28,084 nucleotides of DNA from Deltaproteobacteria bacterium (lineage in GTDB: Bacteria > Desulfobacterota > Desulfobulbia > Desulfobulbales > UBA5123): positions 1 through 28,084 of the forward strand of contig JAJYKH010000001.1 in assembly GCA_021788685.1 (NCBI GenBank), read 5' to 3'. This document shows positions 1,505 through 8,148 of the stretch, in pieces (the first letter of the stretch is position 1; each line of letters starts with the position of its first letter). Under the pieces are notes generated by a model. That model worked only from the letters and a program-made list of their open reading frames with translations. It did no database searches and was not told where the DNA came from. The translations under genes were made by a program, and so were the position numbers.

Positions 1505-1540
1505 AATTGGTTTTTGAAGTGCAAATCAAAAATCAGCTGC
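1505..1540. repeat. Family B intergenic inverted repeat (GCTGATTTTTGAAGTG...CAAATCAAAAATCAGC), copy 1
   Basis: ttggtttttgaagtgcaaatcaaaaatcagc. The 20-mer agtgcaaatcaaaaatcagc (1518-1537) is identical to 10270-10289. The copy overlaps the last codons and stop of the FGE-domain gene. Confidence 0.7.
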
Positions 1541-4189
1541 GCATCGGAAGCCCACAATATTCGAGCAGTGACTCTCCTTCTCGATAGTTCGATGGGCAAT
1601 GGTGACTCGACCGCCGGTGGCCCAGCTTCCCCCCTTGAGCACATAGACCAAGCCACGGCCGCCCCCCTTGCTGCCGTGGATGGTGGCCGTCCACTCGTAC
1701 ACGTTGCCGAGCAGGTCGGCCACCCCGAAGGGGCTCGCCGCTTCCGGTCCGTGCTCGTCCACCGGGGTGGTGCCGCCCCAGAGGGAGGCGAGCACGTTGG
1801 CCCGGGCGGGTGACCAGTCGTGCCCCCAGGGGAAGGGGCGGCCGTCGTGGGCGCCGGCCGCGGCCTCCCACTCCTCCTCGCTGGGGAGCCTTTTGCCCGC
1901 CCAGCGAACAAAGGCCAGGGCGTCGGCCAGGGTAACCTGCACCACCGGGTGGCGGTGCTTGCCCTGGATGGTGCTCTCCGGCCCGGCGGGATGCCGCCAG
2001 TCGGCCCCGTCCGCCTGGCGCATGCTGGTGCCGCGGTCGATGCTGAACACGGCCCGGCCAGTGGCGGGCTCCGTATGGTTGGCGAAGCGGCCCTCGTAGA
2101 CCAAGCCGTACCCCCGCTTTTCCGCTTCGGTCACGTAGCCGGTCTCCCGGACGAACAGCTCGAAAAGATCGTTGGTGACCGGGAACTGCCCGATGCGGAA
2201 GGACGGGAGCCGGACCTCGCGGCGGGGCAGCTCGCGCCCCTGGGGCTCCGGACTGCCCACCCGGTACGCGCCCGCGGGAATGCTGTGGTACCGGGGGGCA
2301 AACCGGCTGAGGATCTGCGCCAGGTACGGATCGTTGGCGGCCCCTGTGCCCCCGGTCCCGGCCTCCTGCTCGCCCACCAGCCCGGAAAGGGCTTCCAGCA
2401 GGCCCATGGTGTCCTCAGGTCCGGCGGCGGGATCGTGGCCAGCAGGATCTTCTCCCGCGTCGAGGGCAAGCTCCTCATCCGGCAGCAGCTCCACCTGTTC
2501 GATCTCCTCTTCTTCGAGGAGGTCGCCGGCCGCCATCTCTCCGCTATCGCTTGCTTGTTCCGGGGCCATCGAAGATTCCTCCCCGAGGACCTCTTCGAGC
2601 TCCTCGATTTCGTCTTCGAAAAAAACGGCCTCGGTTTCGATGACCGGCTCGTTCCCGGCAGCGGGAGCCGCTTCCCCCGGCGGCGTGCTCCCCGCATCCT
2701 GGAGGCCGGCCGCGCCAAGCGGTTCCACCGGGGTGGCGCTCGGCGCCTCCTCCGGCCCTTCCGCCAGCTCGACTTGCTCGACTTCATCCTCGGAGAAGAT
2801 GTCTTCGGCCTCAATGACCTCCCCGCCAGCGGCTCCTTCCGGGGATTGGAGATTCTCCCCGACCATCCCCTGTTCTTCGGTTTCAGGGGAAGCGGCAGCG
2901 TCCGGCCGTTCCGGCCCGGGGGCGGCCAGCGCCGCCGCTGCTTCCTCCGGCAGCTCGGCTTCCTCAATTTCATCCTCGTAGAGGATCTCCCCGGCCTCCA
3001 CCTCCTCCACGGCGGCGGCTGTTTCCCCCATTTCGGGCCCGACGGTCTCCTCGGTCAGTTGGCCGTCCCCTGACCGGTGGGCGGAGTCCGAAGCCTCCTC
3101 CGGCACCTCGGCTTCTTCAGTGCCGTCAACGGAGACCTGCCCGCCGACCAGGGCCCCGGTCCCGAATCCGGCCGAACCGCCAGCACCCACCCCGGGAGCC
3201 GCCGCGAGGATGGCCTCCGGTTCCGGATCATCCCCCGCCAGCTCGGCCTCCTCGATTTCATCCTCGAAGAAGACCTGCTCCGCCTCGATCACGGCCTCCC
3301 CTGCGCCGGCAGGGGCGGCTTCGGGCTGGAGCCCGCCATCGGCCCCGGATGTTTCCTCAGGGACTCCATCGATCTCGATTGCCTCGTCAGCGGACAGCTC
3401 CTCGACGGCCTCCTCGGCAATTTCCTCGAGGAGCGGGGCCGGGCTGCCGGCCGGTGGTGCTTCTTCGCCCGTTTCGCCGACGATCTCCACCTCCTCGGCC
3501 TCGATGATTTCCGCCTCACCGATGTCCGGCCCGGGCAGACCGGGGTGGCCTGCGGGGAGGGAATCGCCCCCGCCCGCGGCGTCTGCCGGCCATTCCGGAA
3601 AGGCGGTGTTCTCCCCTCCGGTAGGGAAAACAGGCGGGCCGGCATCCGGACCAGTTCCCGGCGCGAGGCCCCGTTCCTTCGCTGCCTGCTCCAGGTAGGC
3701 CTTGGTCTGCTCTAGTCCGGCCAGGAGCTCCTGGACCGCCTCGATCCCCTTCTCCTGAATGAGGGTGGAGAAAAGGGACTGGAAGGAGCTGAACGCCTCC
3801 TTCACGGTCAGGGCCGATTCCGCGCCTAGGCCAAGCTGCTCGATCAGGCTGTTCTTCTTTTCCTCGGAAACGATGAAGGCGTTCTCGCGGCCGAGAATGA
3901 TCCCCTCGGGGTTGAGTCCTTTCCGGCTCAGCTCCCGCAGACTTTTGTTGAGCGAAGACTTGAGGCCGCTGAGATTCTTCCGCTTCTGCTGGATCTCGCC
4001 GGAATCGCCGGTTTCCCACACCTGCCGGATGAGCTCCTCGGGGGGGATGGAGTCGATGGCCGCCAAACTCTCTTCGGTGGGGAAGTGGGAGCGGACCGCC
4101 ATGAGCAGGCGGTATTTGAGGGTGTCTTCCCGGAGGGCGAGATGGGCGATGGCCTCGTCGATGCCGGCGAGGGTGACCAGGGAAGCCAT
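1526..4189 (-). CDS. FGE-sulfatase (SUMF1/EgtB/PvdO family) domain protein with winged-helix-like N-terminus and long acidic repeat linker
   Basis: 887 aa, GGAGG RBS at 4198-4202. The C-terminal ~250 aa carry FGE motifs: IPAGAYRVGS, FRIGQFPVTNDLFELFV, HPVVQVT..DA.AF..WAGKRLPSEEEWEAAA, FPWG, FGVADLLGNVYEWT, KGGSW, GFRC. Confidence 0.9.
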   Translation of the reverse strand: MASLVTLAGIDEAIAHLALREDTLKYRLLMAVRSHFPTEESLAAIDSIPPEELIRQVWETGDSGEIQQKRKNLSGLKSSLNKSLRELSRKGLNPEGIILGRENAFIVSEEKKNSLIEQLGLGAESALTVKEAFSSFQSLFSTLIQEKGIEAVQELLAGLEQTKAYLEQAAKERGLAPGTGPDAGPPVFPTGGENTAFPEWPADAAGGGDSLPAGHPGLPGPDIGEAEIIEAEEVEIVGETGEEAPPAGSPAPLLEEIAEEAVEELSADEAIEIDGVPEETSGADGGLQPEAAPAGAGEAVIEAEQVFFEDEIEEAELAGDDPEPEAILAAAPGVGAGGSAGFGTGALVGGQVSVDGTEEAEVPEEASDSAHRSGDGQLTEETVGPEMGETAAAVEEVEAGEILYEDEIEEAELPEEAAAALAAPGPERPDAAASPETEEQGMVGENLQSPEGAAGGEVIEAEDIFSEDEVEQVELAEGPEEAPSATPVEPLGAAGLQDAGSTPPGEAAPAAGNEPVIETEAVFFEDEIEELEEVLGEESSMAPEQASDSGEMAAGDLLEEEEIEQVELLPDEELALDAGEDPAGHDPAAGPEDTMGLLEALSGLVGEQEAGTGGTGAANDPYLAQILSRFAPRYHSIPAGAYRVGSPEPQGRELPRREVRLPSFRIGQFPVTNDLFELFVRETGYVTEAEKRGYGLVYEGRFANHTEPATGRAVFSIDRGTSMRQADGADWRHPAGPESTIQGKHRHPVVQVTLADALAFVRWAGKRLPSEEEWEAAAGAHDGRPFPWGHDWSPARANVLASLWGGTTPVDEHGPEAASPFGVADLLGNVYEWTATIHGSKGGGRGLVYVLKGGSWATGGRVTIAHRTIEKESHCSNIVGFRCAADF

Positions 4190-4203
4190 GCGGCGGTCCT
4201 CCG

Positions 4204-4367
4204 CAGGGGTAAGCGGTCACAGGGCGGCGCATCTGCTTTGTCAGCGGTCTGTCCGCATACCTGGTGTATAGCGAACAGGCCGCTTTCGCGCATCTGCACG
4301 GCCCCTGTAACCGCTTGCAACTTGGGTGCATACGCGATACGTCGTACTTACCCCTGTGATCGGTTAC
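4204..4367 (-). other. Candidate structured 5' leader of the FGE-domain gene (nested helices)
   Basis: CAGGGGTAAG (4204-4213) pairs with CTTACCCCTG (4348-4357). AAGCGGTCACAGGG (4211-4224) pairs 13/14 with CCCTGTAACCGCTT (4303-4316). Three small internal hairpins lie between. Confidence 0.35.
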
Positions 4368-4601
4368 GCGCAAGGGTGTGGTGATGTCGAGACTCTCGTG
4401 AAGTAGTACCAGGAACGGCGATGGTTGGAAACCGGAAACGGGAGAAGAAGGCAGCCAGAAACAGCAATCGGCGGTGCCGGGGCTTGGAGTCTCCTTGGCT
4501 CCGGAATGCCGATCTGAATTCCGTTTGCTTCTCATCGGGCATGGATTACCATTATTCTGCTTTCATGCCACAAGGAAAAAGAGGGAACGTGAGGAGGGAG
4601 C

Positions 4602-7219
4602 TTGATGGCAGCGCCGGTCATCATCGTCGAGTCCGAAGCCAAAGCCGCCCTGCTGCGGTCGCAGTTGGGAAAGGAAATGGAGGTGGCGGTCCTGCCGGCG
4701 GCCCCCGCCAAGGCCTCTTGGCTGGTCCCCAAAGACAAGCTGAAACGGGCGATGCCCCGGTTCGGCTTTGCTCCCCTCCCCGCGGCCAGGCCTCTGCTGG
4801 ATCGGCTGCACGCCGCCCAGGACCGGGACATCTACCTGGCCCTGGAGAACAATGTCCAGGGGGAATACTGGAGCTGGCTGCTGAGCGGCCACCTGGCGGA
4901 GGTTACCAAGGGGCGGCTGGTGCCGGGCCGCCTGCGGCTGTGCGGGCTCAACCGGGAGGAGATCCAGCAGGGGCTTCGGCTGGTGGACACGATCCGGGAG
5001 GAGGCGGCCATCCACGCCCATATCCGCCTGCTCCTCAACGCCTGCCTGGGCAAGCACCTGGACCGGCTGCTGGGGACCCGCTACGGCCCGCAAAATCTGC
5101 CGCTCGATTTCTGCACCCTGGCGGTCCTGGGTCTGCTCCGGGAGCGGGAGGCGGAGCTGGCGGCCCATACGCCGCCGGTCAGGTGGCAGGTGCGGACCAC
5201 TCTCGCCTGCGATGACAGGCCGCTGGCCGCCCGCCTATCCTTTGCGTTCGGCCTCAGCGAGGACGGCTTGTTCGGGCAGGCTGCGGAAGCCAAGGCCGCC
5301 ATCGAGCTCTTCCAGGGGCAACCCGCCATCGTCCGGGAGATCCGCCGGGAGGAGACCCTGCTGGAGCCGCCTCCGCCGTACCGCTGGCCCGAGCTGGTCC
5401 AGGAGGCCTTCCGCCTCCACGGTTTTTCCCCCCTGCTCGTGATCCGGTCCCTTGAAGAGCTCGCGGCCGGGGTGCAGCTCGACGGGGGACCAGTCGCGCT
5501 GATCGGCTCCTCCTGGTGCCTGGCGCCGGTCTCCTGCGCCTCGGTGGCCGGGAGGTGCAAGGCGTATCTGGCAGGGCAGGGGACGGCCGCCGGAGACACC
5601 GGAGACGGAACGGAGCCGGAAGGAGGGGGCCTGTCTCCGCTCCGGCCGGAAATCGGCCCGGAGCGGCTGCCGCCGGCCCTTCCCGCCGAGGCCCGCATCA
5701 TCTACGGCATGATCCGGTCGCGGGCCCTGGCCAGCCAGATGACCCCGGCCCGGGTCGAAACCGCGGAAGTGGTGCTCGGGGCCGGCGACGCCTGCCGGTT
5801 CAGCGCCGCCCTGCGGCGGGTGCTCGCCCCGGGGTTCCTGGATCTGCCTCGACCATTCACGAGCAGGATCTGCGTGAGCCCTCCGCCCTCGAGCACATCC
5901 GGGAAGGGGAGGAGCTTGCCATCCTCCAGATCGCGCCGGGGCCGTATACCACCCCGCCCGAGCTGTACAGCCTCTCCTCCCTGGTCGCCGATCTCGAGGA
6001 ATACGGGCTGGGTGCCGATCCGGTGGTCCCCGCCCGGCTGGCCCGGATGGCCGAGGCCGGCTATATCGAGCTGCTGCCGGAAGGGGGGCTGCGGCCCGGG
6101 GACAACGTCGCGAAGACCGCCGCCGTCCTCGACCGGACGCTGCCGACCCTGACCGGCCTCCAGCTGCCGGGGCTGATGGGCCAGCTGGCCCAGGAGATGG
6201 CCGCCGGCCGCAAACCCCTCGATTTCGGCCTGCATCAGCTGGAGCAGACCCTGATCATGCGGGGCAATGTCCAGGTGAAATCGGAAGCGGCGATTGCCCT
6301 TCCGCATCGCCGGTCGGCCCGCAGCATCATCAAGGCGGAGCCCCCTTCCTCCACCCCGGGGCGGGCACCCGCCCTGCCGACGGAGCCGGCCGAGCGCCCG
6401 GAGTCCCCTGCCGGTCCGGAAGTGATCGTGGCCGATCAATCGCCGCCGGCCCCTGTCCCTGCGGAGCAGTCCGCCACAGAGCCCGCGGCCGAACCGCCGT
6501 TGCCCGCACAGGCGGAACAGCCGGAGGGTTACCCGGGTGCCCCGCCGGAAGCGGTAATGGAAGCGGAGGCGGTGGACACCGTCCCTTTGGAGCCCGAGTC
6601 GTCCACCGAGAGCGTCGGCCGGGAGTCCGGGGCCGCCGGGGCATTCGGGACGGAAACGGCGGATGCCGAAGAGCTGGCAGCGATGGCGGCCGCTCTTCCG
6701 GCGGAAGCCGCGGAAGCCTTTCTGTCGGAGGAGTCGGGTGCGGGCCGGCCCTGCCCGGCCTGCGGGCAGCCCCTCGTGCACAAGGAAGACCGGTTCGGCC
6801 CTTATGTGGCCTGCTCCGGGTTTCCCGCCTGCCGATATGTCGAAGCGGGCCGGCAGGAAGAGGAGATCATGGCCTGTCCCTTGTGCCGGCAGGGGGGCAT
6901 CATGGCAACCCGAACCGCATCCGGCCGCACCATCTATGTCTGTCGTTCCGAGGGCTGCGATTTTCTTGCCTGGAGCCGCCCCCATGCCGGGAGGTGCCCG
7001 GTCTGCCAAGCGCCTTATCTAGTGGAAAGGAAGCGGGCGGACGGCGGCACCGTGCTCGGGTGCCCCCGGAACGGCTGCAGCTACAGCCAGGAGCAGGGGC
7101 TGATGGCGGAGCCGACAGCCCCGGATGGGCCCCGGAAGGTGCGGGTGCGGGTGGTCAAACGGGCCGGCGCCGCCCCGGCCGGCAAGCGGAAGGTGGTGGT
7201 GGTCAGGAGGAAAAAGTAA
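4602..7219 (+). CDS. Type IA topoisomerase (TopA)-like protein lacking catalytic residues, with three C-terminal C4 zinc ribbons; split by a -1 frameshift near 5844-5860 (ORFs 4602..6152 and 5516..7219)
   Basis: First frame: IIVESEAKA (Toprim start), PPPPYRWPELVQEA, IYGMIRSRALASQMTPA, APGFL. Second frame: IREGEEL, TTPPELYSLSSLVADLEEYGLG, CPACGQPLVHKEDRFGPYVACSGFPACRY and two further C4 ribbons. GGAG-rich RBS before 4602. Confidence 0.85.
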
Positions 7220-7288
7220 CGATTAACGAGTGACAAGTAACGAGCAACGAGCCTACCTGTCCTGAGCTCGTCACTTGTCACCTGTCAC
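7216..7288. repeat. Family A heptamer (GTRACRR) tandem + inverted repeat at convergent junction, copy 1
   Basis: GTAACGA-TTAACGA-GTGACAA-GTAACGA-GCAACGA (7216-7250), then inverted TCGTCAC-TTGTCAC-CTGTCAC (7268-7288). The stop codons of both flanking genes lie inside units. Confidence 0.8.
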
Positions 7289-8148
7289 TTGCCGCTCTTC
7301 AGCTTGGCGATGTACGCGCTCAGGTCGCCCGCCAGCTTCTGATTGTCGATCAAGAGCGAAAATTCGTGGTTGTAAGCGAGGGCGGCCTGGGTCAGGTTGT
7401 GGCTGCCCACGAAGCAGAATCGATCGTCAATCACCACCAGCTTGGCGTGGGTGGTGGTCCGGGGGCTGTCGAAGGTCACCGTTACCCCCTTGGCACGCAG
7501 GGCCCTCGCGACTCTCTCGTTTTCCCGGTTGAGCTCCTCGTCATGATCCGAGCGCTCGAGCAGCACCTGTACATCAACCCGCCGTCCGGCTGCGGCGGTC
7601 AGCTCCTTTAGAAGGGTCGCCGGCCGGTTCTGCGGCGAGTCATTCATCTTGAAGAGGAACATGACGATTTCGATTTTCCGCTCCGCCTGCCGCAGATACT
7701 GGCGCAGGGTGTCATAATAGGCGGCGTCCGGCAGGAGGACGATTTCCCCGGGGTAGGTCCCCATGATGCGGGTCTGGACCCTGAGACAAACGGCGGCGGG
7801 CTTGTCTGCCGCTTCGGGCTCCCCCCGGAGGGTGGTGGGGCCGGTTAGAGTGAGGTAGGGCCTGATCGCCTCGAAGCTCCTGCCGCCGATGGCTTCGCTG
7901 GCGAGGAGCTCGTCCAGGCTCTTGAAACGGCCGTGGCGCTGGCGGTATGCGAGAATGGCCCGGGCCCGGGTCTCGCCGATGAAGGGAAGGAGCTGCAGCT
8001 CCTTCAGGGTGGCGGTATTCACGTTGAGCTGGCCGCTCAAGCCCCAGGCCGGGGGCGAAGAGAGCAGGCAGACGAGCAGCAGTGCCGCCATGCCGGAGAA
8101 TCGGGCCTTGCCCGGGTTGCGGAACCACCCCATTTTCTCCTCCTCCAT
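7285..8148 (-). CDS. Secreted ComEA-type helix-hairpin-helix DNA-binding domain fused to a single-HKD phospholipase D-family (Nuc-like) domain
   Basis: Signal-peptide-like ALLLVCLLSSPPAWG; ComEA motif LNVNTATLKELQLLPFIGETRARAILAYRQRHGRFKSLDEL; PLD motif THAKLVVIDD...GSHNLT...NHE. The start may be at the second or third Met. Confidence 0.85.
   Translation of the reverse strand: MEEEKMGWFRNPGKARFSGMAALLLVCLLSSPPAWGLSGQLNVNTATLKELQLLPFIGETRARAILAYRQRHGRFKSLDELLASEAIGGRSFEAIRPYLTLTGPTTLRGEPEAADKPAAVCLRVQTRIMGTYPGEIVLLPDAAYYDTLRQYLRQAERKIEIVMFLFKMNDSPQNRPATLLKELTAAAGRRVDVQVLLERSDHDEELNRENERVARALRAKGVTVTFDSPRTTTHAKLVVIDDRFCFVGSHNLTQAALAYNHEFSLLIDNQKLAGDLSAYIAKLKSGK

Follow-up and report, generated by a model that had tools for sequence, protein, structure and literature searches.

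What remains for a topoisomerase-like protein to do once its catalytic tyrosine is gone, and why would a genome keep it? The question is raised by a gene at positions 4605 to 7219 of a 28,084-nucleotide stretch (hereafter the window) that forms the start of contig JAJYKH010000001.1, from a Desulfobulbales metagenome-assembled genome (MAG; GCA_021788685.1). The gene resembles topA, and we refer to its product as pseudo-TopA. Our answer is that pseudo-TopA is probably a new non-enzymatic, DNA-associated protein. With moderate confidence we regard it as a catalytically dead, selectively maintained TopA paralog whose C-terminus would lie on DNA and whose domain IV would dock the product of a neighboring gene, the two together forming a DNA-associated assembly.

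The gene starts behind a strong ribosome-binding site, as read from the sequence, and is laid out as follows.

4605..7219, forward strand: pseudo-topoisomerase I gene, about 871 codons once a C missing at 5845/5846 is counted; two open reading frames (ORFs) in the assembly
4602, forward strand: in-frame TTG, alternative start
4590..4599, forward strand: Shine-Dalgarno sequence GAGGAGGGAG, read directly, 5 nucleotides before the ATG at 4605
4605..4991, forward strand: degenerate Toprim-like domain I, delimited by alignments
4620-4646, forward strand: segment of domain I with the retained IVES Glu, from alignments
4845-4853, forward strand: ENN at the DxD position of domain I, from alignments
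4992..5177, forward strand: first part of domain IV, from alignments; this segment is also present in a shorter form of the protein described below
5097-5129, forward strand: LPLDFCTLAVL at the GRVQS site, within a family motif H-L-x-R-L-L-G-T...L-P-L
5370..5681, forward strand: domain III equivalent, from alignments; R321, T322 and D323 are replaced here too
5487-5522, forward strand: active-site segment GPVALIGSSWCL, with a Ser (TCC, 5508-5510) aligned to the catalytic Tyr
5845..5846, forward strand: assembly error, one C missing according to Logan contigs, which splits the gene into two frames
5951..6271, forward strand: second part of domain IV, from alignments and from tblastn of the shorter form onto the window
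6272..6736, forward strand: acidic Pro/Ala/Glu-rich linker, disordered as judged from charge, identity and the model of an ortholog
6737..7090, forward strand: three Top1-type C4 zinc ribbons, with 12 Cys arranged as three CxxC...CxxxxC units at 6752-7078
7091..7216, forward strand: polybasic C-terminal tail RKVRVRVVKR...KRKVVVVRRKK, found in all full-length and shorter members

Two Pfam families recognize the protein: Topoisom_bac in its N part (PF01131, 55.7 bits against a cut-off of 35.1) and Zn_ribbon_Top1 in its C part (PF01396, 43 bits against 32). No Pfam match to Toprim was obtained in the window protein. With the TopA model TIGR01051, whose cut-off is 456.4 bits, the two halves in the window score 59.1 and 31.9 bits and intact orthologs 115-118 bits. 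NCBIfam has no dedicated model for the family, and matches to its topA, topB and reverse gyrase models are all sub-threshold. When an ortholog is compared by phmmer to the Streptococcus mutans TopA structure (PDB 6ozw; E 1e-22), the catalytic Tyr aligns to the same Ser as in a MAFFT alignment with canonical TopAs.

To describe the extent of catalytic loss, we tabulated 20 catalytic or single-stranded DNA (ssDNA)-groove positions for 19 paralogs and nine canonical TopAs of the order Desulfobulbales, seven of the nine coming from genomes that also hold the paralog. None of the 20 positions varies among the canonical proteins. The Tyr is absent in all 19 paralogs (10 have Ser, 5 have Thr and the remainder Ala, Val or Gly), and R321, H365, the Arg of GRVQS and the GRPSTY motif are retained in none. 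DxD aspartates are present in about half of the paralogs, and Glu9 is mostly Asp; the window copy keeps the catalytic Glu and has Gln for E115. Where GRPSTY is gone, the second part of domain IV has acquired a family motif, (S/A)GRK...Q(F/L)(D/E)QT. Judged from these alignments, the protein is presumably unable to cleave DNA: replacements affect the Tyr together with its Arg and His helpers, the motifs of the ssDNA groove and, in the window copy, DxD. A preliminary description of this locus, made from the window alone, had reported the replaced catalytic elements and the intact ribbons and tail. Re-reading and alignment reproduce all of these exactly, coordinates included, and catalytic loss is common to the 19 orthologs examined; the alignments contain no further conserved Tyr near the active-site position that could take its place.

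It may be argued that the protein is still an enzyme, with the Ser or Thr at the Tyr position acting as the nucleophile, as in serine recombinases, alongside residual Toprim acids. One of these two residues occurs in 15 of the 19 paralogs, the surrounding GLIS(S/T) motif is conserved, and many members retain Lys13 along with one or both DxD aspartates. However, some members have Ala, Val or Gly at this position, R321, H365 and E115 have disappeared, DxD reads ENN in the window copy, and the shorter relatives lack the entire domain. We consider a surviving enzyme very improbable.

The fold was approached through an AlphaFold2 model of an intact ortholog (P0001), built with a 20-sequence alignment, which stands in for the window protein. 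Its confidence (predicted local distance difference test, pLDDT) is about 90 in the core (residues 1-560) and 70-87 in the zinc ribbons; the linker and the tail both fall below 50 and are disordered. Foldseek aligns the model to Escherichia coli TopA 67K (1cy2, 1ecl) and to 6ozw with template modeling (TM) scores of 0.75-0.77 over ~575 columns at 17-19% identity, and its top match is the full-length structure 4rul. According to this model, the four-domain toroid fold of TopA is retained, in agreement with the colinear scaffold noticed in the preliminary description. The core differs in charge: its net charge ranges from -9 to -28 in the paralogs versus -2 to +11 in canonical TopAs, and the acidic core is therefore evidence against DNA binding by the toroid.

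Is the gene maintained, or is it a copy on its way out? The source MAG (2.9 Mb, 429 contigs, 84% complete) carries an intact canonical topA immediately after dprA on contig C392, with Toprim at 77 bits and Topoisom_bac at 432 bits; the pseudo-TopA gene is not adjacent to dprA. When 40 relatives were searched in six frames, open orthologs of the paralog, 796-912 amino acids long and with no stops, were recovered from 23 Desulfobulbales genomes. Most are 33-41% identical to the window protein and a few are more divergent. Each of the 23 genomes also holds a canonical TopA (~760 amino acids, 24-28% identity). Sources of family members are named as Desulfobulbaceae MAGs and Thiovibrio sp. JS02, and in one genome of the same genus as the source MAG (G001, 89% complete, 570 contigs) neither the paralog nor its partner was found. 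Among 300 genomes across the phylum Desulfobacterota, the full-length paralog is confined to Desulfobulbales, plus one doubtful outlier (G249). This outlier belongs to another family of the phylum and carries a full-length paralog on short contigs (C245:423-2087 and C566; 34% identity, E 5e-107); its genome has 5% contamination, and mis-binning or transfer may account for the gene. A profile search of 1.84 billion representatives returned roughly 60-85 family clusters before canonical TopAs begin, and one ESM Atlas cluster, with 58 members, belongs to the family and has no Toprim annotation. In some families of the order the full-length members (L026, L027, L028 and L029, from G030, G016, G007 and G037) are much more divergent: their Toprim remnant lacks even the (E/D)S motif, as in MAEIFLVAGAAQ, and their domain IV, ribbons and tail are recognizable.

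Selection was estimated as the ratio of non-synonymous to synonymous substitution rates (dN/dS; Nei-Gojobori, first 560 codons, that is, the core). The paralog core gives 0.35 for L008/L009, 0.20 for L012/L013, 0.25 for L015/L016, 0.24 for L016/L025 and 0.11 for L015/L025. The canonical topA core gives 0.125 for L012/L013 and 0.141 for L016/L025. The paralog evolves faster than canonical topA, yet is clearly constrained. Constraint is uneven along the protein: mean identity in the family is highest in the ribbons (0.55-0.60), followed by domain IV (0.51-0.53) and domains I-III (0.36-0.42), and the linker has 23% identity with a family median net charge of -22. The tail carries a net charge of about +9.

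The contrary reading, a duplicated topA that drifts neutrally with a frameshift as its first lesion, must be considered, as the window sequence is itself frameshifted and no full-length form has a longer branch than the window copy. Here, pseudo-TopA is split over overlapping ORFs at 4602..6152 and 5516..7219, and joining them needs one extra base at 5845/5846. We aligned Logan contigs from two metagenome runs on window positions 5400-6300. A contig of run X1 (mine drainage, depth 6.5), probably the source sample of the MAG, has an extra C behind 5845 and 0 other differences. The same extra C is present in a contig of run X2, from a different study and a relative ~90% identical. With this C, the protein reads GFLDLASTIHEQDLR and has, at this point, the length of every ortholog. 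Synonymous differences between the window and X2 lie at third positions of frame 0 before 5845/5846 and of frame 2 after it; in all, 17 synonymous and 17 non-synonymous codon changes are seen (dN/dS roughly 0.3).

Because independent contigs of two runs carry the frame-restoring C, the frameshift most probably arose in assembly of the MAG, and the true gene is one uninterrupted ORF of ~871 amino acids. A programmed -1 frameshift or a real lesion at 5845 is ruled out by the same contigs, and no ortholog is shifted. Similar assembly errors at low coverage (~6x) may split further genes of this MAG. Restoration of the frame by independent contigs, synonymous changes that follow the correct frame on either side of the break, 23 open orthologs with dN/dS of 0.1-0.35, and conservation of new family-specific motifs together refute the decaying pseudogene, to which we leave next to no probability. 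The preliminary description had proposed a long-lived, non-catalytic homolog rather than a decaying copy, and had named a separate intact topA and dN/dS below 1 as checks. The second gene is indeed present, and the open orthologs, their shared catalytic loss and core dN/dS values of 0.11-0.35 (0.13-0.14 for canonical topA cores of the same genome pairs) bear out the proposal. As for the frameshift, the frame could be restored as had been suggested, but the break itself proved to be an assembly artifact and not a lesion.

The strongest functional clue for pseudo-TopA, overlooked in the preliminary description, is the neighboring divergent gene, which gives the following additional elements.

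1526..4189, reverse strand: partner gene, divergently transcribed; characterized through Pfam, adjacency, co-occurrence and the fold of its N-terminal domain
4190..4601, no strand: divergent intergenic region common to both genes, presumed from its position to hold the promoters of both

The partner is a protein of 820-990 amino acids with a conserved 120-residue N-terminal domain, EEAE-type acidic repeats and a C-terminal FGE-sulfatase domain, the sole part known to Pfam. Its gene and the TopA-like gene are divergently oriented in the window as well as in three further genomes of Desulfobulbales (L017-19), and the window partner is orthologous to those of L017-19, L036 and L052-61. The N-terminal domain is modeled at pLDDT 90 and is closest to OmpR/PhoB effector domains and to ScpB (Z 6-7.5 over ~80 residues, a modest similarity); the model would make it winged-helix-like, which we take as a lead only.

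The two genes travel together. Among the 40 relatives, the partner N-terminal domain was detected in 21, and all 21 hold the paralog. The pair lies side by side on the same contig in 20 of them; in the remaining one, G039, the partner is matched as a fragment where a different contig begins. Two relatives have the paralog without the partner, both at contig starts; none has the partner alone, and 17 have neither gene. Related genomes are not independent samples, but this co-occurrence still needs several joint gains or losses. In a complete genome of the order (L064, G024:C1:331000-350000), the row sat-DHQS-CoADR-dsrAB is collinear with only a 288-bp gap at the site of the block. The FGE-like / TopA-like / HhH-PLD block has left no trace in G024; the neighborhood sat-DHQS...CoADR-dsrAB is collinear across Desulfobulbales.

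The third member of this block is a convergent downstream gene with HHH_3 and PLDc_2 domains (7285-8148, reverse strand in the window), which occupies the same place in most pair-carrying genomes. Two other genomes (L062 and L065) keep this HhH-PLD gene and lack both members of the pair; since it persists where the pair is absent, it probably lies outside the unit. Directly after the pseudo-TopA stop, we also observed a run of GTAACGA/GTGACAA-like heptamers followed by inverted copies (7216-7290). A consensus search of the region upstream of the window gene and of 18 related upstream regions gave no convincing sigma-54 -24/-12 element.

The profile search also returned proteins of ~470-540 amino acids that match just the second half of the profile. 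This mini form aligns to residues 139-190 and 455-558 of P0001, so that the two halves of domain IV are fused directly and domains I, II and III are cleanly absent. Beyond domain IV, it has an acidic linker, two ribbons and an RRRVVRRKR-type tail. One mini protein (P0129) matches the full-length ortholog P0001 over domain IV and ribbons (BLASTP, 2e-32), and a tblastn search of the window with the mini form gives matches at 5010-5204 and 5948-6265; Pfam finds sub-threshold traces of TopA only. In the last two ribbons, identity to canonical TopAs of the phylum is 40-49%. Mini forms are spread over at least seven further families of the phylum, with none found in Desulfobulbales. A maximum-likelihood tree of canonical, full-length and mini proteins was built on 280 shared columns. 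The canonical TopA branch has a length of 1.42 and a support of 100, the split of full-length versus canonical plus mini sequences a support of 97, and the mini clade 98. With rooting on canonical TopA, these supports would make the mini and full forms sisters, subject to possible long-branch effects.

The mini form has the same partner. In 9 of 11 mini loci an ortholog of the FGE-like gene stands next to the mini gene, and the orientation of the two is tandem, divergent or convergent. Mini proteins (P0129, P0146) share with the window protein the motifs of domain IV, the acidic linker, the last two ribbons, the RRRVVRRKR-type tail and the FGE-like partner; unlike them, the window protein has domains I-III as well (~870 versus ~500 amino acids) and, as is usual in the full-length form, a third ribbon. 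In four mini loci (L036, L052, L054 and L060), a ParA/MipZ-like ATPase and a small acidic protein are found beside the mini gene, and in two they stand directly between the partner and the mini gene. We note that the mini gene, the ATPase and the small acidic protein form an operon-like row in these four loci (6438-9599 in L036). The row is directly beside the FGE-like gene in L036 and L054 and ~2 kb away in L052; L060 starts at the ParA gene, and the partner position is outside view. The small acidic protein has roughly 200 residues, with a conserved N-terminus of 100 residues and no Pfam match. Neither the ATPase nor the small protein was found beside the full-length form, in the window locus or in L017-19. 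A single query (P0175:1-100) did not detect the small protein in the incomplete genomes G000, G002, G008, G017 and G019.

The mini form bears on what domains I-III might do, for which the main rival to our interpretation is a non-cleaving topological clamp or sensor: a toroid of domains I-IV that opens and closes on ssDNA, RNA or an R-loop, with the partner reading out its state. The toroid fold is confidently retained in the ortholog model, domains I-III are under purifying selection in Desulfobulbales, and the zinc ribbons, which bind ssDNA in TopA, are kept. However, the ssDNA-groove elements GRVQS, GRPSTY and R321 are all gone, the core is acidic, and sister lineages that dispense with domains I-III still have the partner. 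The ssDNA clamp suggested in the preliminary description is weakened by these observations, and we judge such a role unlikely.

A second possibility is that pseudo-TopA regulates, or competes with, TopA or RNA polymerase, with ribbons and tail taking the sites of TopA and tuning supercoiling locally. The C-terminal domains of TopA contact RNA polymerase. Consistent with this possibility, solved complexes of RNA polymerase with topoisomerase I (9gda) are among the best structural matches of the P0001 model, and the similarity of the last two ribbons to those of canonical TopAs was noted above. Regulation of this kind leaves unexplained the obligate FGE-like partner and the remodeled, highly conserved domain IV; furthermore, the pair is missing from many members of the order. 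We hold a regulator of this type to be quite unlikely.

We thus return to the DNA-anchored adaptor introduced at the outset. The conserved working parts would be the remodeled domain IV, which has gained a conserved surface of its own, and the C-terminal Top1-type ribbons with their polybasic tail, joined by the acidic disordered linker. Ribbons and tail may anchor the protein on the DNA of the nucleoid with no sequence specificity, by analogy with what these elements are known to do in TopA. The remodeled domain IV may dock the protein encoded by the divergent neighbor, and the two proteins together would constitute a DNA-associated assembly; the cellular role as an adaptor would follow from these contacts. 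In sister lineages, the same pair would operate with its TopA part cut down to domain IV and with a ParA-type ATPase and a small acidic partner in addition, an arrangement that suggests positioning on the nucleoid.

Several points weigh against this scheme. Domains I-III are under purifying selection (identity 0.36-0.42, dN/dS below 0.35), and therefore have a role beyond the adaptor model. The contact proposed between domain IV and the partner is predicted from gene linkage. The frequent Ser or Thr at the Tyr position (15/19) and the DxD aspartates in about half of the paralogs make residual or altered chemistry possible. Neither ParA nor the small partner was detected in the five Desulfobulbales genomes searched, and the positioning idea may be inapplicable to the full-length form. 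Finally, two metatranscriptome runs, both from the same study, do not cover the gene and are uninformative on expression.

A broader hypothesis, which we offer tentatively and would not bet on, is that the pair is an undescribed nucleoid-associated machine of Desulfobacterota, in which a whole type IA topoisomerase was exapted as a non-cutting scaffold that was later trimmed and coupled to ParA in sister lineages. If true, the Desulfobulbales form would represent an evolutionary intermediate on the way from an essential enzyme to a structural or positioning protein. Active TopA, the full-length dead paralog and the domain-IV-only remnant form a natural series, in which both non-canonical forms stand beside one partner, and this series shows which parts of the topoisomerase scaffold are reusable for a non-catalytic role. 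The pairing with an FGE-like protein with acidic repeats, and with ParA in sister lineages, points to unexplored cell biology in sulfate-reducing and sulfur-disproportionating bacteria. There is also a practical consequence: source annotations name proteins of this family 'DNA topoisomerase', and topoisomerases are therefore overcounted in genome annotations of the order.

Full-text searches of the literature returned nothing on dead type IA paralogs or on a module combining FGE, ParA and a TopA remnant, and as far as these searches show, this type IA topoisomerase-derived pseudoenzyme family is undescribed. The closest known system is bacterial TopA itself (TIGR01051; E. coli 1ecl/4rul, S. 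mutans 6ozw), with which pseudo-TopA is colinear over its whole length and shares the toroid (TM 0.76) and the C4 ribbons; its basic C-terminal tail resembles those of actinobacterial TopAs. Unlike TopA, it lacks the catalytic Tyr, R321, H365, GRVQS and GRPSTY, its Toprim domain is degenerate, its core is acidic, an acidic linker of 150 residues is inserted, and an FGE-like partner gene is adjacent. E. coli YrdD is a stand-alone, non-catalytic homolog of the zinc-ribbon C-terminal domain of TopA. Like pseudo-TopA, YrdD is non-catalytic, derives from part of TopA and keeps the nucleic-acid-binding ribbon module; unlike it, YrdD is not known to have a topoisomerase core, a linker, a polybasic tail or an FGE-like partner. 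PhaM of Ralstonia and PhaF of Pseudomonas are nucleoid-anchoring adaptors whose basic tails are histone-like, and McdB is a cargo adaptor of ParA. We assume the likeness to these three to be a functional analogy, with no relationship in sequence or fold: a protein-binding domain joined to a basic DNA-binding tail and, in the sister lineages of pseudo-TopA, a link to ParA.

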